This document shows positions 3,559 to 27,254 of a DNA stretch of 29,139 nucleotides, piece by piece. The DNA is from Thermodesulfobacteriota bacterium (GTDB lineage Bacteria > Desulfobacterota > Desulfobacteria > Desulfobacterales > SURF-7), in NCBI GenBank assembly GCA_049320885.1, contig JBMORA010000008.1, forward strand, positions 1 through 29,139, in the 5' to 3' direction. A program made the translations under genes and the position numbers. The notes beneath the pieces are model-generated. The model made no database searches. It was not told the origin of the DNA and worked only from the letters and a program-made list of their open reading frames with translations. How positions within the stretch are numbered: the first letter of the stretch is position 1; every line of letters begins with the position of its first letter.

Positions 3559-4248
3559 TCATTCGCCGGTGCGGCGAAACAAGACCGTCAGGACCGTGTT
3601 GCGGATACCGAACCGATCCAGCGGCACCATGACGGCATGATCCCGTGTGAGGCCCGGGGGAAAGGAAATGGAAACCGGCACCTCGCCGCTCATGGCCCCT
3701 TCGCCGGCGCAGCGGGTGCAGGTGAAGGGGCCGATTTCACCATACCCATGGCAGACGGGACAGACCGCCCTGGCCGGAACCATCACCCGGGCGTTTCCGC
3801 CGCGGCGGGCCTGATCCTCCGTCAAGGGCACTTCCAGGGTCAATTGCTGAACCCGGCCGGATTTAGGGGGCGTCACGCTGGAAAAATTGTTCCACAGCCA
3901 ATCGAAAATTTCATCAAATGAGGGGGTAAACCGTTCGAAAGAGCGCACCGGGGAAATATCCCCGAGATCCATGGTTCTGTCTTCCGGAATCAGCGGTTCG
4001 ACTTCCGTTTTACCGGAACGCCGGATGGGAATGTCCACCGCCGATCGCCGCAGGGAGCTTTCGTATTGATGTCTTCTCTGGACGTTGCCCAGCACCGAAT
4101 AGGCTTCCTGAATTTCGCGAAATACCGAGCTGCCGCCATAATAATGATCCGGATGAAACTCTTTGGCCAGCCGCCGGTACGCCGACCGGATTTCATCCTG
4201 GGTTGCGTTCGATGCAATACCTAAAATCGCATAATAGCTCTTGGCCAT
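3559..4248 (-). CDS. J-domain (DnaJ-like) co-chaperone with partial zinc finger
   Basis: N-terminal J domain (YYAILG...AYRRLAKEFHPD). Two CxxCxGxG motifs (CPVCHGYG, CTRCAGEG). RBS GGGAGG. Confidence 0.9.
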   Translation of the reverse strand: MAKSYYAILGIASNATQDEIRSAYRRLAKEFHPDHYYGGSSVFREIQEAYSVLGNVQRRHQYESSLRRSAVDIPIRRSGKTEVEPLIPEDRTMDLGDISPVRSFERFTPSFDEIFDWLWNNFSSVTPPKSGRVQQLTLEVPLTEDQARRGGNARVMVPARAVCPVCHGYGEIGPFTCTRCAGEGAMSGEVPVSISFPPGLTRDHAVMVPLDRFGIRNTVLTVLFRRTGE

Positions 4249-4383
4249 TGACGCCTCCCGTTGTCATCTGGATATCGTCCGCCGATGATGATTTGCCGGT
4301 AACCATCCTTTCCATGGAGAAACCGCGCCGCCATAAAGATGCCGGGGCCTGTCGCCGCCTGGACGAAAGCCCCGGCCGATTCC

Positions 4384-4788
4384 TTACGCCGCCTGCACGG
4401 TGATTTTACGCGGTGTCGCTTTTTCGACTTTGGGTAGGGTCAGCCGCAGGACGCCGTCTTCCAGTTTGGCCTCGATCCGGGCCTGGTCGATGGTGTCTGA
4501 CAGACTGAACTGCCTGGCGAATTGCCCGACTTCATATTCAATGACAATATCCTCTTCGTTGGGACCTTCATAAGGAGCCACTTCTCCCTTGATGGTCAAG
4601 GTATTGTCGCGCAGATCGATGGTGAGATGATCGGCCTTCACGCCGGGCATGTCCGCCAGCAGAACGATATTCGATTCGGTTTCGAAAATGTCCACTTCGG
4701 GCGAAAATACCGGCCCCGGCTTGGTTTGCTCCGCGGGGCTTGCCACCGCTTGTTTTTCTTTTACCTGAATTTCTTTGCTGTCCGTCAT
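4384..4788 (-). CDS. Hsp20/alpha-crystallin small heat-shock protein
   Basis: PEVDIFET..LLADMPGV...F.RQFSL...IEAKLEDGVLRLTLPK...PRKITV. RBS AGGAGG. Confidence 0.95.
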   Translation of the reverse strand: MTDSKEIQVKEKQAVASPAEQTKPGPVFSPEVDIFETESNIVLLADMPGVKADHLTIDLRDNTLTIKGEVAPYEGPNEEDIVIEYEVGQFARQFSLSDTIDQARIEAKLEDGVLRLTLPKVEKATPRKITVQAA

Positions 4789-4815
4789 GGCGCATCCCTC
4801 CTTTCCTGCTGGCTA

Positions 4816-5271
4816 TTATTTCACGGTGATCTGTTTGGGTTTGGCTTTTTCCGATTTGGGCAGCACCACTTTCAAAATCCCGTTGGAAAGACCGGCCGCC
4901 ACCTTTTCCGCATTGATCTCCCGGTCAAGGCTGATGACCCGGGAAAATTTTCCCGCCTCCCGCTCCCGTCGATGATATTTGGCCTTGCTGTCTTCCTCCT
5001 GAATTTTCCGTTCGCCGGCGATGGACACGGTGTTGCCGGTGGCCTGAATCTCCAGATCCGTGGCCTTCACGCCCGGCAGTTCGGCCCGGATATAATAATG
5101 GTCCTTGTCTTCCGTCAGGTTGAGCAGGGGGAAAACCCCCACGCTTCGCTGGGCCGTTCGGCCCATCAGGCTGCCGGACAGCAGGTCCAACTGCCGTCTC
5201 ATCCGATCGAATTCGTCAAAGGTATTCCCAAAACGCCAATCCGGCCATCCGAAATATCGTCTCAGTATCAT
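4816..5271 (-). CDS. Hsp20/alpha-crystallin small heat-shock protein
   Basis: FPLLNLTEDKDHYYIRAELPGV...RREREAGKFSR...NGILKVVLPK..KPKQITVK. RBS AGGAG. Confidence 0.95.
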   Translation of the reverse strand: MILRRYFGWPDWRFGNTFDEFDRMRRQLDLLSGSLMGRTAQRSVGVFPLLNLTEDKDHYYIRAELPGVKATDLEIQATGNTVSIAGERKIQEEDSKAKYHRREREAGKFSRVISLDREINAEKVAAGLSNGILKVVLPKSEKAKPKQITVK

Positions 5272-5331
5272 GGTGAAATCTCCTTTCCTTTGTTATGGGT
5301 TGCAATTAATATACAAATGAAAATCAATCCC

Positions 5332-5823
5332 CTACATGCTTTTAACCTCGATTTTCCTGGTTTCCGATTCCTTTACCTTTTTCAACTCGATGGTCAACAC
5401 GCCCTTTTTATAGGTAGCCTCCACCTTGGCGTCATCCACTTCGGCCGGCAGTTCCACGGTCCGCTGGTAGCATCCGTAACTGCGTTCGCTGCAAAAAAAG
5501 CCCTTGCCCTCGTCCTGGCTTTCCTGGCGTTTCTCGGCCTTGATTTTCAGCAGCCGGCCGTCCAGGGACACGTCGATATCCTTGGAATCCACGCCGGGCA
5601 TCTCCGCTTCCACGATGATTTTCTTTTTCTCCTCTCGCACGTCCAGACGGGGAAGCAGGCCCGCTGTATCCATCAAACCATCGGAAGTCATCCATCCGCG
5701 GGGAAACACGTTGTCAAAAAAACCATCCATCCGCTGTTGAAGCTCGTTGAAAGTATTCTCCGGCTGTCGGGAAACCATCTGGTTTTTTCTTTTCCAGGGA
5801 ATGAGTTCTGAAAAGCGTTTCAT
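5332..5823 (-). CDS. Hsp20/alpha-crystallin small heat-shock protein
   Basis: PRLDVRE..AEMPGV...ERSYG.YQRTVELP...ATYKKGVLTIEL...RKIEV. ATG at 5823 preceded by AGGAGG. Confidence 0.95.
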   Translation of the reverse strand: MKRFSELIPWKRKNQMVSRQPENTFNELQQRMDGFFDNVFPRGWMTSDGLMDTAGLLPRLDVREEKKKIIVEAEMPGVDSKDIDVSLDGRLLKIKAEKRQESQDEGKGFFCSERSYGCYQRTVELPAEVDDAKVEATYKKGVLTIELKKVKESETRKIEVKSM

Positions 5824-5864
5824 TGGTTGCACCTCCTTTGCCGATGATAATTCTTTTTTCAACT

Positions 5865-7082: not shown

Positions 7083-9104
7083 ATGGAGGCGACTTCCGAT
7101 AAGCTCCGGCGGATGGTGGTGATATCGTCAGCCGTGCGGGAATTCATGGCGTTTCCAGGCTGCGAGGATATCGCCGTCACGGAAACGGACGATATCCGGC
7201 GCGAACTGAACCGCTTCTTGAAAGCGGAAGAGGGTCGGGTGCATTGCGTTCTTTTCCTGCATGTGGACGATTATCGTGATGTCGCGGCGGCGCTTCGCCT
7301 TCCAGCCTTTTCCCGGCTCGCCTGTCAGCTCATCGCCTTCGGTGATGAAAAAAACATGGCGGAACTGGAATTCGAAGCCCTTTCGGAGATCGCCGAATTC
7401 CGGCGTCACCCGCTGTCCGAAAAGGAATCTCGCTTCATCGTGCAGAAGTCCTTTGCCGTTCTCCAGGCCCTGCAGGGCAACCGGTCTCCCGAGGAACGGT
7501 CCCTGGCCATGCTGATGGACACCAGGAAAGACCAGGACGATCTGATCCATATCGGCAGGGCCCTGTCCAGCGAAAAGAATCCCGAAAAACTCCTGCGGTT
7601 GATCCTGCACCTGAGCAAACGAATCACCGGAGCCGACGCCGGCAGCATTTACCTGGTGGAAACCGGACCCGACGACGAGAAACGGCTGCGCTTCCAATAC
7701 GCGGAAACCTTTTCCCGCGCGATTCCGCTGGAGGAATTCCTTCTGCCCCTGAATACGGCATCCATCGCCGGCTATGTGGCGGTGACCGGCCGGGTTCTCA
7801 ACCTGCCGGACGCCTATGATCTGCCGCCCGACACGCCCTATTCCTATAACGACTCCTTCGACAGGCGCTATGGCTATCAATCCCGATCCATGCTGGTGGT
7901 GCCCATGAAAAACCATCTGGATGAGATCATCGGCGTGATCCAGCTGATCAACTGCAAGGAATCCGCGGACGGGCTCTGCCGTCATGGCGATGCGGCCTTC
8001 ACCATCACACTGGAGACACCAGGGGATTTTGCCGACCATGTGGTGCCCTTTCCTCCCCGGTATGACAGTCTGCTGGAAGCCGTAGCCGGCCAGGCGGCCA
8101 TCGCCATCGAAAACAACCGCATGATCCGCCAAATCCAGCACCAGTTCGAGGAATTCGTCAAGGCCGCGGTTGCCGCCATTGAATCCCGGGATCCGGCCAC
8201 ATCGGGCCATTCCTTCCGGGTGGCCGAGATCTGCACGGCCATGGCCCGCGCCATCAACGAAACCGATGACGGCAACCTCAAGGATTTTCATTTTTCGGAA
8301 GTCGAAATCAAGGAATTGGAACTGGCGGCCCTGCTGCATGATTTCGGCAAGGTGTATATCGACATTTCGATTTTTCAGAAGGCCAGGAAACTCCACCCCA
8401 AAGACTTTGAAAACCTGTCCCTGCGGCTCGATTATTTGTACCGGTTCCTGGAACTCCGCTATGCTGCCCGGGAAGCCGGGCTGACCAAATCCTTTTCCGG
8501 CAGCGAAGCCCCTGGCCGTCTGGAAACGGAAAGGAAAAACGCGCTCCGGCGGATCATCGAGATCAAAAACCTGCTCACCAGGATGAACGAGCCCGCGGTA
8601 GTGGAGGAAAATCCGGAGGAAACGCTGGCGGAAATCGCGGCGGAAATCGCGGCGCTGGATTGCATCGGCATGGAAGGGGACCGGATCAGCGTGCTATCGC
8701 CGGCGGACATTCTGAACCTGTCGGTACGCCGGGGAACCCTGAATGCCCTGGAACGGAAGGAAATCGAAAGTCACGTGGGCCACACTCACCGTTTCGTGAG
8801 CAAAATCCCCTGGCCGCCGGAATACCGGAACATTCCGGAAATCGCGCTCCGGCACCATGAAAAATTGGACGGCACGGGCTATCCGGACGGGATCCGGGGC
8901 GCGGCAAACATCCCGCTGCCTTCCCGGATCATGGCCGTGGCCGACATCTTCGACGCCCTCTCCGCCGGCGACCGTCCCTACAAGAAGGCCGTCCCCCTTG
9001 AACAAGTCCTGAAAATCCTCCGCCAGGAGGCGGAAAAAGGCGGCATTGACAAGGACTTGACGGAACTGTTCATCACGAAAAAAATCTACGCCCGGTATTT
9101 ATAA
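7083..9104 (+). CDS. GAF + HD-GYP domain cyclic-dinucleotide phosphodiesterase
   Basis: GAF domain (ADAGSIYL, SIAGYVA, SMLVVPM..IIGVIQLIN). Split HD-GYP domain (TSGHSFRVA, ALLHDFGK, HHEKLDGTGYP, ADIFDAL...RPYK). Confidence 0.92.
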   Translation: MEATSDKLRRMVVISSAVREFMAFPGCEDIAVTETDDIRRELNRFLKAEEGRVHCVLFLHVDDYRDVAAALRLPAFSRLACQLIAFGDEKNMAELEFEALSEIAEFRRHPLSEKESRFIVQKSFAVLQALQGNRSPEERSLAMLMDTRKDQDDLIHIGRALSSEKNPEKLLRLILHLSKRITGADAGSIYLVETGPDDEKRLRFQYAETFSRAIPLEEFLLPLNTASIAGYVAVTGRVLNLPDAYDLPPDTPYSYNDSFDRRYGYQSRSMLVVPMKNHLDEIIGVIQLINCKESADGLCRHGDAAFTITLETPGDFADHVVPFPPRYDSLLEAVAGQAAIAIENNRMIRQIQHQFEEFVKAAVAAIESRDPATSGHSFRVAEICTAMARAINETDDGNLKDFHFSEVEIKELELAALLHDFGKVYIDISIFQKARKLHPKDFENLSLRLDYLYRFLELRYAAREAGLTKSFSGSEAPGRLETERKNALRRIIEIKNLLTRMNEPAVVEENPEETLAEIAAEIAALDCIGMEGDRISVLSPADILNLSVRRGTLNALERKEIESHVGHTHRFVSKIPWPPEYRNIPEIALRHHEKLDGTGYPDGIRGAANIPLPSRIMAVADIFDALSAGDRPYKKAVPLEQVLKILRQEAEKGGIDKDLTELFITKKIYARYL

Positions 9105-10171
9105 TACGCCGCGCAGGTGCCTTCGCTGGACACCATGCAGGGCCCCACAGGCGTCATGGGCGTGCAGACCGTTTCATACAGGGCGCAATCCGGCGGAATT
9201 TTCAGGCCGGTCAGGATCTCCCCGCAGGCGCAGCCTTTCGGAGGGGCGGCCGCCGACAGATGGATACCGAAACGCAGCCTGGCGTCATGGCGCTCGAACA
9301 GCGGTCTTATCCGCAGGCCACTCAGGGGAATGACGCCGATGCCGCGCCAGTCGGCATCCGCCGGTTCGAAAACCCGGTCCATGACGGCCCGGGCCTTGGG
9401 ATTTCCCGCCGCCGTCACGGCCCGGGGATAGGCGTTTTCCACCCGGGCCTCCTCCCCGGATCCGATCTGCCGGACCAGCAGCCAGATCGCCTGCAGAATG
9501 TCCGCCGGCTCGAACCCGGCTACGACGCAGGGCACGCCGTATTGTTTCACGAAAGAACGATAGGCGTCGGCGCCGATGATCACCGAGACGTGTCCCGGCA
9601 GCAGGAACCCGTCGATGCGGACGCCCCTGGTTTCCATCAGGGCGCAGAGGGCCGCCGGCACGGTTTTGTGGGCGCAGAAAACGGAAAAATTGTCCAGGCC
9701 GCTCTCCCGGGCCGCCAGAATGGCGGCAGCCACCGTGGGGGCCGTGGTCTCGAACCCGACCCCGAGAAAGACCACCGGGCGTCCCGGGTTTTCCCGGGCC
9801 ACGGTAAGGGCGTCGAAGGTGGAGTAGACGATTCGGATGTCCTTGCCTCCGGCGCGTTCCTGCTGCAGAGAGGACCCGCTGCCGGGAACGCGCATCAGAT
9901 CGCCGAAAGTGGTGATAATGACATCCGGCTGGGCCGCAAGGGAGACGAAAGCGTCGATTTCCGCCTGGGCGGTGACGCAGACCGGGCAACCCGGTCCGGA
10001 CAGCAGGGTGATGTCCCGGGGCAAAACGGACCGGATCCCGCTGCGGAAAATGGCCACCGTATGGGTTCCGCAGACCTCCATCAGGCGCAGCGGGCTGGTG
10101 AGTTCCCCGTTGATCCGCTGGATCAGTGATGCGGACACCTGTTTGTCCCGATATTCGGCCGCATGTTTCAT
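9086..10171 (-). CDS. hypD: Hydrogenase maturation protein HypD
   Basis: MEVCGTHT, GPGCPVCVT, GFETTAP, PGHVS and GPCMVSSEGTCAAYY motifs. Confidence 0.97.
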   Translation of the reverse strand: MKHAAEYRDKQVSASLIQRINGELTSPLRLMEVCGTHTVAIFRSGIRSVLPRDITLLSGPGCPVCVTAQAEIDAFVSLAAQPDVIITTFGDLMRVPGSGSSLQQERAGGKDIRIVYSTFDALTVARENPGRPVVFLGVGFETTAPTVAAAILAARESGLDNFSVFCAHKTVPAALCALMETRGVRIDGFLLPGHVSVIIGADAYRSFVKQYGVPCVVAGFEPADILQAIWLLVRQIGSGEEARVENAYPRAVTAAGNPKARAVMDRVFEPADADWRGIGVIPLSGLRIRPLFERHDARLRFGIHLSAAAPPKGCACGEILTGLKIPPDCALYETVCTPMTPVGPCMVSSEGTCAAYYKYRA

Positions 10172-12474
10172 CTGGTTTGTCCTTTCCGTTCCATGGCCGC
10201 GGCTGCCACGGCCTGCCCCAGGGAAAGCCCTCCGTCGTTGCAGGGGACCTTGCGGTGGGTGTATACCAGGAAGCCTTCCCGTTCAAGGGCTTTCATCAAT
10301 CCGCCAAACAGGAGGAGGTTCTGGAACACCCCGCCGCTCAGGGCCACCCGGTTGATTCCGGTGTCCCGGCGCAGGTTTCCGCAGAGCTCCGTGAAGAGGG
10401 CGACCAGGGTGGCATGAAACTTCCCGCTGATGACGGCCTGCGGCGTTTGCTGTTGAACGTCCGCCACGATCCCCCGGACAATCGGCCCGAGGTCGATGCG
10501 ATGGGGAAGGCCGGGGCTCCAACCGAAGTCATAGCGGGTTTCCACACCGGCATCGGCGATCATTTCCAGTTCCATGGCGGCCTGTCCCTCAAAGCGCACC
10601 TGCTGCCGCAGGCCGACCAGGGCGGCCACGCCGTCGAACAGCCGCCCCAGGCTGGAGGTCAGCGGGCTGTTGACCGATCGTTCCATCATCCGCAGGATGA
10701 TGTGGCATTTTTCCGGCGCCAGGTTCCGCACCAGGGGGATATCCATATCCGGAAAACACCTTCCATGGGCGGCATACAGATAGGCCAGCGCCATTCTCCA
10801 CGGTTCCCGGACAGCGGCGGCGCTCCCGGGCATGGCCGCATACTGCAGATGGGCCAGGCGTTGGAAGCTCTCCGGACGGCAGAGCAGCACTTCTCCGCCC
10901 CAGATGCGGCCATCGCTGCCGTATCCGGTGCCATCGAACGCCAGACCGATGACCGGATCCGCAAGCCGGTTTTCAGCCATGCAGGCGACAATGTGTGCAT
11001 GGTGATGTTGAACCCCCACCCGCGGTTTGTCCATCCGGGCCAGGGCATAGCGGGTGCTGAGATAATCCGGGTGCAGGTCATGGGCGATCAGCTCCGGCTC
11101 GATGCGGAGAATCCGCTGCATATGCGCGATGGACTTCTCAAAAAAACGTTCCGTGATCTCGTTTTCCAGATCGCCGATATGCTGGCTGAGAAACGCCTGG
11201 TCCCCGCGGGTCAGGCAGACCGTGTTTTTCAATTCACCGCCGCAACCCAGGACGCAAGGCTGGGAATGCAGAAGGAATAGGGGTGCGGGGACAAACCCCC
11301 GGGAGCGCCGGATAAAACGCGGCGCCCCGGCGGCATGCCGCACAATGGAATCATCGCTCCGCAAATAGATGTCCCGGTTGTGCACCAGGAAATAATCGGC
11401 GATGCCGGCAAGGCGTTTGAAGGCCTCCTCGTTTTCCATGGCGATGGGTTCCTCGCTGCGGTTGCCGCTGGTCATGACAAGGGCCGTGAATCCATGGGAC
11501 AGCAGCAGGTAGTGAAGGGGCGTATACGGCAGCATGACGCCGAAATACCGGTTGCGGGGCGCCGTTTGCTCGGCGATGCCATGGGGATTCCGCTTGGTCA
11601 GCAGCACAATGGGCCGGGTAATGGAGCCGAGCAGGCGTTCCTCCTCGGCGGACATGTCCGCGAACAGGCGGATGGTTGCCGGATCCGGCGCCATGAGCGC
11701 GAAGGGTTTTTCTTCCCGCCGTTTGCGCCGGCGCAGTTTTTCCACGGCGGCGTTGTTGCGGGCGTCAACCGCCAGATGAAAGCCGCCCAGCCCCTTGACG
11801 GCCATCACAACACCGGTCTTCAGCAATCCGGCGGCTGCGGCAATGGGATCTTCCGCATCCATTTTTCCGCCGTCACGGTTCAACAGGGTCACCTGTGGGC
11901 CGCATTGCTTGCAGGCGTTGGGCTGGGCATGAAAGCGCCGGTCGGACGGATCGTCATATTCCGCCTGGCACAGCGCGCACATCCGGAAATGCCGCATGGA
12001 GGTGTGCGGCCGGTCGTAGGGAATATCGGCGATGATGGTATAACGCGGGCCGCAATTGGTGCAGTTGATGAACGGATAATGGAAACGGCGGTCGGACGGA
12101 TCGAACAATTCCCGCAGGCAATCGGCGCAGACCGCCACGTCCGGTGAAATCAGGGCGGGTCGTTCGGGCGGCACCCCCCGGCTTTCGGCAATGGAAAATG
12201 TAGCGAACGAACCGGTGGGCGGAAGGTTTTGTTCCTTGATATCGGTGATCTGGGATAAAGGCGGAGCAGACGCGAGCAGTTCCTTCCTGAAGTTGTCCAC
12301 CGATACGGCCGGGCCCTCGGCATGGATTTCGACCCCGTCCAGGGTATTGGCGACTTCCCCGACCAGCCCGTGGCGGGTCGCCAGTTGAAAGACAAACGGA
12401 CGGAACCCGACGCCTTGGACGATTCCGGCGATTTTCCATCGCCTGGCGATATGTCCCTGATCGGCCGGCGTCAT
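10168..12474 (-). CDS. hypF: Carbamoyltransferase HypF
   Basis: Acylphosphatase domain (GIVQGVGFRPFV), two zinc fingers (CADC..CTNC; CALC..CKQC), VKGLGGFHL, QHHHAH, DGTGYG and NDGGLSLGQ. Confidence 0.97.
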   Translation of the reverse strand: MTPADQGHIARRWKIAGIVQGVGFRPFVFQLATRHGLVGEVANTLDGVEIHAEGPAVSVDNFRKELLASAPPLSQITDIKEQNLPPTGSFATFSIAESRGVPPERPALISPDVAVCADCLRELFDPSDRRFHYPFINCTNCGPRYTIIADIPYDRPHTSMRHFRMCALCQAEYDDPSDRRFHAQPNACKQCGPQVTLLNRDGGKMDAEDPIAAAAGLLKTGVVMAVKGLGGFHLAVDARNNAAVEKLRRRKRREEKPFALMAPDPATIRLFADMSAEEERLLGSITRPIVLLTKRNPHGIAEQTAPRNRYFGVMLPYTPLHYLLLSHGFTALVMTSGNRSEEPIAMENEEAFKRLAGIADYFLVHNRDIYLRSDDSIVRHAAGAPRFIRRSRGFVPAPLFLLHSQPCVLGCGGELKNTVCLTRGDQAFLSQHIGDLENEITERFFEKSIAHMQRILRIEPELIAHDLHPDYLSTRYALARMDKPRVGVQHHHAHIVACMAENRLADPVIGLAFDGTGYGSDGRIWGGEVLLCRPESFQRLAHLQYAAMPGSAAAVREPWRMALAYLYAAHGRCFPDMDIPLVRNLAPEKCHIILRMMERSVNSPLTSSLGRLFDGVAALVGLRQQVRFEGQAAMELEMIADAGVETRYDFGWSPGLPHRIDLGPIVRGIVADVQQQTPQAVISGKFHATLVALFTELCGNLRRDTGINRVALSGGVFQNLLLFGGLMKALEREGFLVYTHRKVPCNDGGLSLGQAVAAAAMERKGQTR

Positions 12475-12535: not shown

Positions 12536-12772
12536 TCAGCTTTCATCTTCTTTTTCAACCAGGGCCAGGGTTTCTTTCAGGATCTGCAGGGTTTCATACG
12601 CCGCAAGTTCATCAATTTTGTGGATGGCGAACCCGGCATGCACGATGACGTAATCGCCGATCCGGGGGTCTTCGATCATGAGCAGGCTGACTTCCCGTTT
12701 GACCCCGTCCACGTCGACGGTGCCCATGTCGTTATCAATCCGGATGATTCGGGAAGGAATGGCCAGACACAT
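12536..12772 (-). CDS. hypC: Hydrogenase assembly chaperone HypC
   Basis: Starts MCLAIP; contains GDYVIVHAGFAI. RBS AGGAG. Confidence 0.95.
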   Translation of the reverse strand: MCLAIPSRIIRIDNDMGTVDVDGVKREVSLLMIEDPRIGDYVIVHAGFAIHKIDELAAYETLQILKETLALVEKEDES

Positions 12773-13265
12773 GCGTTTGACTCCTCTGCCGATAGGAAAC
12801 CCCTGCCGCATCCAGCTCCGTCAGCACCATGCCGATCACCGGATCGATCTGGCGGCGCAGGGTTTCGGTCAATTCAATCCCCATGCTCTCGATATCCCCT
12901 GGTTCCGCTCCGACAATCACGGTCTCCGGGACTTTGTCCAGGGCCTGGCACATGGTCAGGGCCTCCAGCAAATCCACCTGATGCAATGAATTTTTGGCCC
13001 GCACCCTTTCCGGAATGGCCGCCCCGGCCAGACGATACCGGTCTCCCGGCCTGCCGTTGTTGCGGATGACGTCCACGACGATCAGGCGGTCCGCATCGGA
13101 TATGACCCCCAGCAGGTTCAACCCGAGCACGCCGCCGTCCATCAGGGTGACATTCTCCGGAAACTCATACCGTCTTTCAAGCTCCTCCACCACCCGGACG
13201 CCGAACCCCTCGTCCGTGTACAGGATGCAACCCACCCCCAGTATCAGGATTTGTTCCGCTGCCAT
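12735..13265 (-). CDS. Hydrogenase maturation endopeptidase (HyaD/HybD family)
   Basis: ILILGVGCILYTDEGFGVRVV, DGGVLG, IVVD and SLHQ motifs. ATG at 13265. Confidence 0.93.
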   Translation of the reverse strand: MAAEQILILGVGCILYTDEGFGVRVVEELERRYEFPENVTLMDGGVLGLNLLGVISDADRLIVVDVIRNNGRPGDRYRLAGAAIPERVRAKNSLHQVDLLEALTMCQALDKVPETVIVGAEPGDIESMGIELTETLRRQIDPVIGMVLTELDAAGVSYRQRSQTHVSGHSFPNHPD

Positions 13266-13295: not shown

Positions 13296-13342
13296 AAAAG
13301 AAAAAAATCCCCGCGCCGGCCCGTGAGACCGGCAGCGGGGAT
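13296..13342 (-). terminator. Intrinsic terminator/attenuator after the hydrogenase structural genes
   Basis: Stem ATCCCCGC-T-GCCGG / CCGGC-GCGGGGAT followed by a T-rich tract on the minus strand, just after the large-subunit stop. Confidence 0.75.
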
Positions 13343-13354
13343 CCCGTTCATCCG

Positions 13355-14998
13355 TCAAACAGCGCGAATCTTATAGACCTCATTGGAGCTCGGATCAATG
13401 ACATGGACGCCGCAGGCAATGCACGGATCAAAGGAATGCACGGTCCGGAGAACTTCCAGGGGCCGCTTGGGATCCGCCACCGGGGTGCCGATCAAGGCCT
13501 CCTCCAGGGGACCGGGCAGGCCCTTGTCACACCGGGGTCCCAGGTTCCAGGTGGAGGGAACCACATACTGGTAATTCTTGATCATGTTGTTTTCGATCTG
13601 GATCCAGTGCCCCAGCGAGCCCCGCGGCACATCATTCAGACCGACCCCCATGGCGGTTTTGGGCATTGTCCAGCTCTGGTAGGTCTTGATATTGCCGTTT
13701 TTTACATTGTCGAACAGCTGCATGATCCAGCCTTCCATGGCATTGCCGATGGCCGCGGTTTCAAGCCCCCGGGCGGCGGTCCGGCCAAGGGTGGAGAATA
13801 AGGCCGACACCGGAATATTCAGTTTCTGGAGGGTGCTGTCCACCAGGGGCTTGATGTCTTTATGCCCTTTGCCATAGGCCACCAGGACCCGCGCCAGGGG
13901 TCCGACTTCGCAGGCGGCCTCTTCATAGCGCGGCGCCTTGAACCAGGTATATTTTCCGGTTCCGGGTTTATAGTCGCCGGGTTTGGGCTTGGTTTCACCC
14001 TCGAAGGGATGCTTGGGCTTTCCTTCCTCGTACCAGCCGTATTTGACGTGTTCGGTGACCTTGGTCTGATCCGCGGGCTGAACAGCGCCCACCTCCCTGT
14101 TTCGGATCATGCCGCGGGGCATGTACAGGCTTTCCGGCTCATTTTCGGAAAGCGGGAAATCCCCCCAGCACAGGAAGTTGGCGGTGCCGCCGATGGCGCC
14201 CCATTCCTTGTAAAAGGAAGCCACCGCCAGGAGATCCGGGATATAGACATTGTTGACAAAATCCTGGGTTTCCTTCCACAGATACAGGAATTGCGCCAGC
14301 CGGTCCGGATTCAAATCCTGTACGGAGGTGACGCCCCCCACCACCAGGGATTGCAGATGCGGATTCTTGCCGCCGAATATGGCGTGCATCTTGGCGGCCC
14401 TGGCCTGGAGACGCAGGGCCTCAATGTAATGGGAGGCGGCCATCAGATTGGCCTCCGGGGTCAGTTTGTAGGCCGGATGCCCCCAATAGCCGTTGGCGAA
14501 AATACCGAGCTGGCCGCTGTCCACAAAGGTCTGGATGCGCTGCTGCACGTTTTGGAAATAGGCTTTTCCGCCCCAGGGGGCGTTGGAGACGCTTTCGGAC
14601 AGGGTGGAGGTCTTGGCCGGATCGGCCTTGAGGGCGCTGAGAATATCCACCCAATCCAGGGCATGCAGGTGGTAGAAATGAATGATATGGTCGTGCTGAA
14701 ACTGGGCTCCATGCAGGAGATTGCGGATGAGACGGGCGTTTTCCGGAATCTTGACGCCAACGGCGTTTTCAACTGCCCTCACCGAGGACAGGGCGTGGGT
14801 GTAGGTTCAGACACCGCAGGAGCGCTGCACGAAATGGTGGGCATCCCGGGGATCCCGCCCGATCAGAATCATTTCAATGCCCCGGAACATCTGCCCGGAA
14901 CTCCAGGCGTTGGTAACCTTGCCGTCCGCCACTTCCACCTCGACCCGCATATGTCCCTCGATACGCGTAATGGGGTCGATCATAATTCGTTTTGCCAT
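13355..14998 (-). CDS. hynB: Periplasmic [NiFe]-hydrogenase large subunit (Hyn/group 1b-like), 547 aa, with in-frame TGA (predicted Sec64) in the N-terminal CxxC motif
   Basis: ORFs 14807-15031 and 13355-14782 share one frame. Joined sequence: [16 protein letters not shown]...RDPRD...QRSCGV[TGA][15 protein letters not shown]...[10 protein letters not shown]...PRGSLGHW...VVPSTWN...[12 protein letters not shown] plus a 15-aa cleavable tail. RBS AGGAG before the ATG at 14998. hynA/hynB naming differs between species. Confidence 0.92.
14772..14796 (-). promoter_or_regulatory. Candidate bacterial SECIS hairpin
   Basis: Begins 11 nt after the UGA: AC-GCCCU [GUCCUCGGUG] AGGGC-(A)-GU. The apical loop starts with G, 17 nt after the UGA. 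Confidence 0.65.
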
Positions 14999-15070: not shown

Positions 15071-16012
15071 TTACATCTCCTTGTAGAAAGGCGTCATTTC
15101 ATCCCAGAAATTGGGCTGACTGCAGCCGATGCAGGGATGACCGGCCTGTACCGGCCAGCTGGTGCCGCCGTTGAATTTGGCCGTGGGGCAGTTGTTGTAA
15201 GTTTCCGGGCCGCGGCAGCCGAGTTTGTACAGACAGTATCCCATGACCGCCTCCTCGGAGCCGAATTCCGTCACGAATTCATCATTTTCGAAATGTGACC
15301 GCCGCGGACACTGGTCGTGGACGGTTTTTCCATAGGCGAACAAAGGCCGCCCCAGGTTGTCGATTTCCGGAAGCTTGCCGAGGAGGATATAATTGACGAT
15401 GCTGCCGATAAGATTGAGCGGATTCGGTGGGCAGCCGGGTATATTGAGGGTCTTGATTCCAATGGCCTCACCAACGCCCTTGTATCCTCCGGGATTGGGT
15501 TTGGCGGCCTGAATGCCGCCGAAACAGGCGCAGGTTCCCTGACAAATGACGGCTTTGGCCTTGGGGCAGATATCCTTGGCGATCTCCAGGAAAGTGCGGT
15601 CCGAGAATTTCCCGTAAATCCCATTGTCTTTTGTGGCGATGGCCCCTTCCACCACACAGATGAATTCCCCTTCATAACGTTTCACCGAAGACCGCAACAC
15701 TTCCTCGGCCTGCTGTCCGGCGGGCGCCATGATGGTTTCGTGATATTCCACGGAAAGGATATCCAGCACCAACTCGTCCACCCAGGGATACATGGTGCGG
15801 ATCATGGCCTCCGAGCAGCCGGTGCACTCGCCGAAATGGAGCCAGATTACCGGCGGCCGTTGTTTGGGGGCGGCAAAGACCTCCGCCACCCCGGCCACAT
15901 GGGATGCGGAAAGCCCCATGGTGGCGGTCAGAAATGTGCAGAACTTCATGAAATCTCTTCGGGAGACTCCCTTGCTTTCCAATTTTTCAAAAAACTCTTT
16001 TTCCCTGCCCAT
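15071..16012 (-). CDS. hynA: Periplasmic [NiFe]-hydrogenase small subunit with Tat signal
   Basis: Twin-arginine motif SRRDFMKFC. Proximal cluster ECTGC, GTC, GCPP; distal HDQCPR..CLYKLGC; medial NNCP..WPVQAGHPCIGC (Pro, so [3Fe-4S] type). No C-terminal membrane anchor. RBS AAGGAGG. Confidence 0.96.
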   Translation of the reverse strand: MGREKEFFEKLESKGVSRRDFMKFCTFLTATMGLSASHVAGVAEVFAAPKQRPPVIWLHFGECTGCSEAMIRTMYPWVDELVLDILSVEYHETIMAPAGQQAEEVLRSSVKRYEGEFICVVEGAIATKDNGIYGKFSDRTFLEIAKDICPKAKAVICQGTCACFGGIQAAKPNPGGYKGVGEAIGIKTLNIPGCPPNPLNLIGSIVNYILLGKLPEIDNLGRPLFAYGKTVHDQCPRRSHFENDEFVTEFGSEEAVMGYCLYKLGCRGPETYNNCPTAKFNGGTSWPVQAGHPCIGCSQPNFWDEMTPFYKEM

Positions 16013-16173
16013 CGGCACCTCCTTCACAGGCAAAACAGGTTGTCATCATTGAGATCTTGTCGGGGGAAACCCTCCTTTCATGGCTTGATTTTCCGGGTTC
16101 AACCATAAGGGTGTTGATATCGAAGTGGCTATATCCGTTGGATAATGGCGGTTTTTTCCAAGACAGGAATATG

Positions 16174-27095: not shown

Positions 27096-27254
27096 CACGG
27101 CCCCTTATTGAAAGGCGGATCATAGCATGACCGGGATCGATCCTCGACACAGACCACATCTCTTATCGCTGCTTCCTTCCGGACCTGACGAGGTTCGTGA
27201 GGGTCTGTTACGCGGCGACCGATCAGAATGATCCGCCTTTCAATAGGGGCCGTG
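27096..27254 (-). ncRNA. ffs: Signal recognition particle RNA
   Basis: Exact helix-8 motif TCAGGTCCGGAAGGAAGCAGC (27188-27168) inside a long rod closed by a 27-bp inverted repeat, followed by a T tract. Ends are approximate. Confidence 0.93.

Follow-up and report, generated by a model that had tools for sequence, protein, structure and literature searches.

Comparison with related genomes indicates that hynB, the large-subunit gene of a [NiFe] hydrogenase from a Thermodesulfobacteriota bacterium of the order Desulfobacterales, is almost certainly an intact gene encoding selenocysteine (Sec), with a single in-frame UGA at codon 64 (UGA64). The gene lies on contig JBMORA010000008.1 of assembly GCA_049320885.1; positions 1 to 29,139 of its forward strand were analysed, and this whole stretch of 29,139 nucleotides is called the window below. 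We consider it highly probable that UGA64 is recoded to Sec by SelB and Sec-tRNASec under the direction of a selenocysteine insertion sequence (SECIS), and that this Sec bridges Ni and Fe in a Hyn-type enzyme. Recoding appears to be the only reasonable reading because four observations converge: recurrence of the codon in relatives, conservation of a downstream hairpin, a low ratio of nonsynonymous to synonymous substitution rates (dN/dS), and the presence of a Sec machinery.

An in-frame UGA in a Hyn-type large subunit

The hynB frame opens with ATG (14998-14996), ends with TGA (13357-13355) and is interrupted by one stop only, the TGA at 14809-14807. Both metal-binding motifs, RxCGxCxxxH and DPCxxCxxH, were found in the read-through product, with U replacing the second N-terminal cysteine (Cys). 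The other three ligands are Cys, the arrangement of the CXXU variant. Cys526 is encoded by TGC, and the DPUxxC motif of classical [NiFeSe] enzymes is absent. The Pfam model PF00374 (NiFeSe_Hases) runs across the TGA and is covered from position 1 to 508 of 508 (723.3 bits, cut-off 25.8). Translation with table 11 yields only the 475-residue downstream piece (13355-14782), and the protein database entry for this gene (P0002) is the same truncated protein. The original prediction, made from the letters of the window, had described one frame broken only by this TGA, an all-cysteine C-terminal motif, an otherwise intact gene followed by intact maturation genes, and a gene that callers would split. 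The translation bears out these points: read-through gives 547 residues, no further stop was found, and the genes for the protease, HypC, HypF and HypD adjoin hynB (Table 1).

Assembled sequences agree at this site. The Logan contig of the probable source run matches the stretch without any difference at a depth of 25, which is not independent evidence. Two sediment runs contained fragments of the stretch, and for the short contigs of relatives that cross the UGA site no difference is listed. An identical 263-nt contig (13694-13956) was present in one RNA run. None of these contigs independently proves the base call or expression.

The best solved match of HynB is 1H2A_L of Desulfovibrio vulgaris Miyazaki (E 1.1e-210), followed by the enzymes of D. 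fructosovorans and D. gigas; matches to the Sec-containing Hys structures are much weaker (E about 1e-106 to 1e-98). For the small subunit, HynA, the best solved match is 1H2A_S (E 1.6e-118). The first 104 columns of the HynB/1H2A_L alignment are gap-free, and residues 61, 64, 526 and 529 correspond to 81, 84, 546 and 549. We take residues 84 and 549 of 1H2A_L to be the bridging ligands, so that residue 64 here occupies a bridging position. The 15-residue C-terminal extension is presumably cleaved at maturation. The second position of the N-terminal motif is also described as bridging in the accessible parts of Evans 2021 (PMC8020662) and Takano 2026 (PMC13582414).

Family models led to the same classification. 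The small-subunit model TIGR00391 scored 395.8 bits (cut-off 179.5) and the protease model TIGR00140 scored 157.9 bits (cut-off 151.8). Both Hys models of NCBIfam remained below their cut-offs (HysA, NF045518, 423.9 against 780; Hys small subunit, NF045520, 241.5 against 470). A small subunit with a twin-arginine translocation (Tat) signal and a HyaD/HybD-type protease are encoded next to hynB, as expected of Group 1 periplasmic uptake enzymes. From these features hynAB is classified as a soluble Group 1 [NiFe] uptake hydrogenase of the Hyn type that is exported by the Tat pathway. HydDB group 1b is its probable place, given that its best matches of solved structure are Desulfovibrio Hyn enzymes. 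No cytochrome c (CxxCH) gene was found beside hynA. Since the enzyme is of the Hyn and not of the Hys type, its use of selenium would have arisen separately from that of the classical DPUxxC enzymes. The Hyn assignment and the independent origin had both been proposed in the original prediction and agree with these results.

Recurrence of the codon and conservation of a downstream hairpin

To see how this codon behaves in relatives, the read-through protein was searched against 41 related genomes, 401 genomes of the order and 401 of the phylum. Within the order, 242 of 401 genomes gave a match at E<=1e-100. The best 150 matches (73-100% identity) comprised 100 with exactly one in-frame TGA and 50 with none; a further 114 matches lie beyond those counted. 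The codon itself was read in 78 excised loci. In the order, 31 distinct loci from many families bear a TGA, and all have it at the equivalent of codon 64; the Cys-type genes have TGT or TGC (TGY) at that position. Six more close orthologues, which belong to other orders within the phylum, also have TGA at codon 64. Among 71 full-length sequences, 37 were CxxU, 31 CxxC and 3 UxxU, and the C-terminal motif was all-cysteine in every one of them.

The three UxxU large subunits, which are Group 1 proteins (L066 in G658, L089 in G558 and L090 in G479; 73%, 55% and 54% identity to HynB of the window), have TGA at both N-terminal ligands (R-x-U-G-V-U) and an all-cysteine C-terminal motif. One other locus (L067, G628) carries a second in-frame TGA where the window has Trp (NAY-*-GHPAY against NGYWGHPAY), which could reflect either a TGG>TGA substitution or an error. 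Two relatives have damaged Sec-type copies: hynB is frameshifted in G018 (L025/L030) and truncated after about 244 residues in G025 (L028), a genome that is only 60% complete. These may be decaying genes or assembly faults. The protein database was rejected as a means of telling Sec from Cys forms: all 119 full-length matches show C at position 64, and a stored C may mask a U turned into C. A scan for co-adapted residues in 35 CxxU and 23 CxxC close orthologues found no alignment column, apart from residue 64 itself, that separates the two groups. The best column was residue 353 (frequency difference 0.76); residues 67 and 71 are encoded within the hairpin described below or next to it.

Downstream of UGA64 the message can form a short hairpin (Table 1). 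Its codons, +7 to +11 (TCC TCG GTG AGG GCA), show no variation across the 31 Sec-type genes, except for one GTG>GCG change in the loop; the flanking codons of the same genes occur in two to four synonymous forms. At the base of the stem C and U alternate (20 CTG, 11 TTG), both of which can pair with G. The hairpin codons vary freely in 11 Cys-type orthologues, where arginine is encoded by AGA, AGG, CGG, CGA or CGT. Bacterial SECIS elements are described as having an apical loop that begins with G (Takano 2026, PMC13582414, accessible part). The loop of the present hairpin opens with G and its sequence is conserved beyond coding needs. Rfam, applied to the whole window at its gathering threshold, returned the signal recognition particle (SRP) RNA only and no bacterial SECIS family. 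An identical hairpin was found in six CxxU loci outside the order (L063-L065, L067, L068 and L093, from three more families of the phylum). Two members of a distant CxxU lineage (L091 in G632 and L092 in G712, about 54% identity) have a different downstream hairpin, CAGCUCCGUGAGAGCUG, pointing to an independent origin or to a SECIS that has diverged strongly.

Selection was estimated on both sides of the UGA. Pairwise dN/dS against hynB of the window, taken only from pairs without dS saturation, was 0.006-0.05 upstream (63 codons) and 0.016-0.12 downstream (66 codons). A quick maximum-likelihood tree of 43 rows, from which the broken or distant loci L025, L028, L030 and L031 were left out, implies at least four Sec/Cys changes, of which at least two are forced by well-supported branches alone. 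Cys-type genes are nested within Sec-type clades (for example L022 next to L023), and the hairpin sequence is common to all close Sec-type genes. This pattern would fit one gain of Sec followed by several reversions to Cys. The Sec and Cys forms interconvert inside one orthologue group.

The genome (G000) has what Sec insertion requires. A canonical tRNA-Sec with G73 is on contig C12, SelA and a canonical SelB were both found, and SelD is encoded at C1:345002-345928 by a gene that itself has an in-frame TGA. A second [NiFe] hydrogenase (C14:133983-135233) has the classical C-terminal DP-U-ISC motif and a third (C9:338999-340378) is all-cysteine. SelA was found in 388 of the 401 genomes of the order (E<=1e-30); being nearly universal, it does not discriminate Sec-type from Cys-type genomes. 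The comparative checks proposed with the original prediction came out on the side of recoding: TGA recurs and alternates with TGY among orthologues, dN/dS of 0.006-0.12 denotes purifying selection on both sides of the codon, and selA, selB, selC and selD are all four present.

Selenocysteine or cysteine at residue 64

In the proposed mechanism, SelB with Sec-tRNASec would recode UGA64, directed by the 8-bp hairpin within the codons for L70-A75. The selenolate of Sec64 would replace the bridging cysteine thiolate (residue 84 of the D. vulgaris Miyazaki enzyme, C79 of Escherichia coli hydrogenase 1, Hyd-1). C61, C526 and C529 would serve as in ordinary Hyn enzymes, as would maturation by HypCDF and C-terminal cleavage by the adjacent protease. 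By analogy with the Hyd-1 C79U variant, the enzyme may be expected to be active with shifted kinetics, not inactive.

Several points weigh against this reading. Selenium is placed at residue 64 by sequence comparison, and the base call at the UGA site comes from assembled contigs. The 73-nt fold around the UGA is no stabler than shuffled sequences (z 0.17), so that the case for the hairpin is made by conservation and not by energy. No SelA match at E<=1e-30 was obtained in four TGA-type genomes, G002, G052, G164 and G241 (94%, 61%, 89% and 97% complete); these gaps probably lie in the assemblies. Finally, the genome carries what looks like the selC*/selB* system, so that Cys64 could be present in some or all of the product.

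This last point deserves closer attention. A second tRNA with a UCA anticodon, 92 nt long (G000:C1:315730-315821, L032:6731-6822), has an 8-bp acceptor stem, A1:U72 and U73, the discriminator base for cysteine. Directly downstream of it is a SelB-family open reading frame (L032:6848-8773; TIGR00475, 286.6 bits, above the cut-off), whose product is 32% identical to the canonical SelB. The same contig also carries a divergent second gene with a cysteinyl-tRNA synthetase (CysRS) domain (C1:238795-239697). The available text of Mukai 2017 describes selC* tRNA-Cys species (U73, with UCA or GCA anticodons) having selB* downstream in Desulfobacterales and Syntrophobacterales, and reports that a selC*-type tRNA suppressed an opal codon with cysteine in E. 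coli. The tRNA termed tRNA-ReC decodes UGA as Cys when a SECIS is provided, according to the part of Takano 2026 (PMC13582414) that cites Vargas-Rodriguez 2018. Judged by its sequence features, the pair on contig C1 is the selC*/selB* arrangement of Mukai 2017. Because the genome has this tRNA-Cys(UCA) together with its own SelB paralogue, residue 64 could sometimes be cysteine.

One way to accommodate both systems is dual decoding, in which the same UGA and SECIS would give Sec at residue 64 when selenium is available and cysteine, via selC*/SelB*, when it is scarce. We hold this to be possible though doubtful. If true, a single gene would let the cell switch its main periplasmic hydrogenase between a selenium-bridged Ni-Fe site and an all-sulfur one.

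It is also conceivable that UGA64 is simply decoded as cysteine, SelB* delivering Cys-tRNA(UCA) to the SECIS, and that the enzyme is an ordinary all-cysteine [NiFe] hydrogenase. The tRNA, the SelB paralogue beside it and the CysRS-domain gene would all agree with this, but the distribution of the tRNA does not. Of the 41 relatives, 12 have a TGA-type hynB, and a selC*-like tRNA turned up in only 6 of these. None was found in G018, G020, G021, G025, G027 and G028, so that the TGA form is maintained in its absence. The search found no carrier among the 7 Cys-type genomes and 4 carriers among the 22 others. As the genomes are related, and three of the six TGA-type carriers come from one genus, these counts do not amount to a statistical test. 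Moreover, the genome has a complete canonical Sec system, and a constant need for cysteine could be served by TGY, as in the Cys-type orthologues. We regard exclusive insertion of cysteine as quite improbable. As for the original claim that Sec is the bridging Ni-Fe ligand, its recoding part is supported by the comparison of relatives, while the identity of the inserted residue has to be qualified, since tRNA-Cys(UCA)/SelB* may insert cysteine.

The two other explanations deserve hardly any credence. A nonsense mutation or assembly error that makes hynB a pseudogene would account for the frame split under table 11, for the 475-residue database entry and for the damaged copies of the two relatives, but is excluded by the TGA recurring in all 31 loci checked and singly in 100 of the best 150 matches, by hairpin conservation, by dN/dS well under 1 on both sides and by the Sec machinery; the identical contig of the probable source run, although not independent, is also against it. 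The other is a stop at UGA64 with a restart at the GTG at 14782, where a frame of 13355-14782 does open, the 63- and 475-residue pieces assembling into an enzyme without a bridging ligand. The 27 nt from UGA to GTG, however, encode TYTHALSSV, which is conserved as protein in Sec-type and Cys-type genes alike, and the hairpin conservation fits a SECIS. To our knowledge, no [NiFe] site is without a bridging ligand at the position of residue 64.

Relation to known hydrogenases and gene neighbourhood

Insertion of Sec at UGA64 would make the enzyme a natural Group 1 hydrogenase with selenium at the bridging position. Such a form is not new, and it is common. The accessible text of Takano 2026 (PMC13582414) and Evans 2021 (PMC8020662) names Baltazar 2011 (Eur J Inorg Chem) as the source of N-terminal CXXU sequences of Group 1. 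In those sequences Sec is likewise predicted at the second, bridging N-terminal position, and hynB of the window is a member of this class. The citing paper gives only two Group 1 sequences, as far as its available part goes; here there are 100 among the best 150 matches in one order. Evans 2021 also mentions, in the part available, 'purported examples' of a substituted bridging Cys. What is added here is the frequency of the form in the order, the evidence for a SECIS from sequence, the repeated switching between Sec and Cys, and the co-occurrence of a cysteine-inserting tRNA.

The closest characterised enzymes are the HynAB of D. vulgaris Miyazaki F (1H2A), D. gigas and D. fructosovorans. 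They share the motifs, the Tat signal, the C-terminal extension and, in the small subunit, the GCxGP...NNCP stretch, but have cysteine where HynB of the window has U64. Classical HysAB enzymes (D. vulgaris Hildenborough, 2WPN/5JSH; Desulfomicrobium baculatum, 1CC1) are also Group 1 periplasmic enzymes with one Sec among the four Ni ligands; their Sec is described as a terminal Ni ligand at the first ligand position of the C-terminal motif, where HynB of the window has Cys526. The engineered E. coli Hyd-1 C79U is a Group 1 enzyme with Sec at the bridging position homologous to residue 64, although this is an artificial variant (UAG/EF-Tu route) in an O2-tolerant group 1d background (Evans 2021, PMC8020662). 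According to the accessible part of that report, C79U kept 13% of the native H2-oxidation rate, the most of four Sec variants, and behaved like the native enzyme under transient O2 exposure.

Outside Group 1, Sec in the N-terminal motif has been predicted, as here, from read-through and a SECIS with G early in its apical loop; this applies to Group 4 [NiFeSe] enzymes with CXXU, UXXC or UXXU (Takano 2026, PMC13582414) and to a CxxU 'FrhA' from Olavius symbionts (Zhang and Gladyshev 2007, PMC1976440). As these sources describe them in the parts available, both belong to other hydrogenase groups, membrane-bound energy-converting or cytoplasmic. The available part of Takano 2026 gives UXXU only for Group 4; the three UxxU proteins found here belong to Group 1.

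Selenium as a bridging ligand has so far been studied only in the engineered E. coli enzyme, as far as the available text of Evans 2021 (PMC8020662) goes. A literature search with most subscription journals outside its coverage found no biochemical study of a natural bridging-Sec enzyme. Judging by the best 150 matches, the main periplasmic hydrogenase of this order, which comprises bacteria of the sulfate-reducing type, seems to occur more often in its Sec form than in its Cys form. An uncharacterised enzyme type may thus account for much of the H2 turnover in the environment. Gene callers truncate hynB, so that metabolic reconstructions may score such genomes as lacking an intact Hyn hydrogenase. 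The Sec- and Cys-type genes, 70-80% identical and adjacent in the tree, would provide natural matched pairs for the role of selenium at this position.

The features of the hynAB region are collected in Table 1. For the protease gene, the ATG at 13265 is a likelier start than the TTG at 13358. The hairpin just past the hynB stop folds at -35.3 kcal/mol (z -5.55), and none of 200 shuffled sequences folds equally well. It is not among the listed results of a consensus scan. It looks like a terminator or attenuator between hynAB and the maturation genes.

Table 1. Positions of the features of the hynAB region in the window
Feature	Position	Strand	Remarks
hynA, small subunit, twin-arginine signal SRRDFMKF	15071..16033	minus	probable ATG start 16012; match to 1H2A_S
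hynB, [NiFe] hydrogenase large subunit	13355..14998	minus	547 codons + stop, UGA64 read through
N-terminal Ni-binding motif R59-S-C61-G-V-U64-T-Y-T-H68	14795..14824	minus	ungapped against QRTCGVCTYTH of 1H2A_L
In-frame UGA, codon 64	14807..14809	minus	second Cys position of the N-terminal RxCGxCxxxH nickel motif
SECIS-type hairpin CUGUCCUC-GGU-GAGGGCAG	14773..14791	minus	8-bp stem, loop opens with G, stem 15 nt after UGA
C-terminal Ni-binding motif D524-P-C526-I-A-C529-G-V-H532	13403..13429	minus	all cysteine
C-terminal 15-residue extension after His532	13358..13402	minus	aligns with the tail of full-length 1H2A_L
Terminator-like GC-rich hairpin, then U-run	13300..13349	minus	just past the hynB stop
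HyaD/HybD-type maturation endopeptidase	12735..13265	minus	PF01750; TIGR00140; open reading frame to 13358 from TTG
hypC	12536..12811	minus	PF01455
hypF	10168..12474	minus	five HypF domains
hypD	9086..10171	minus	PF01924, 497 bits

Elsewhere in the window, three tandem HSP20 genes adjoin a DnaJ-domain gene (3559-5862, minus strand) and a tyrosine integrase lies near the contig end (447-1433, plus strand). The small SRP RNA is at 27128-27224 on the minus strand (Rfam, 57.8 bits).

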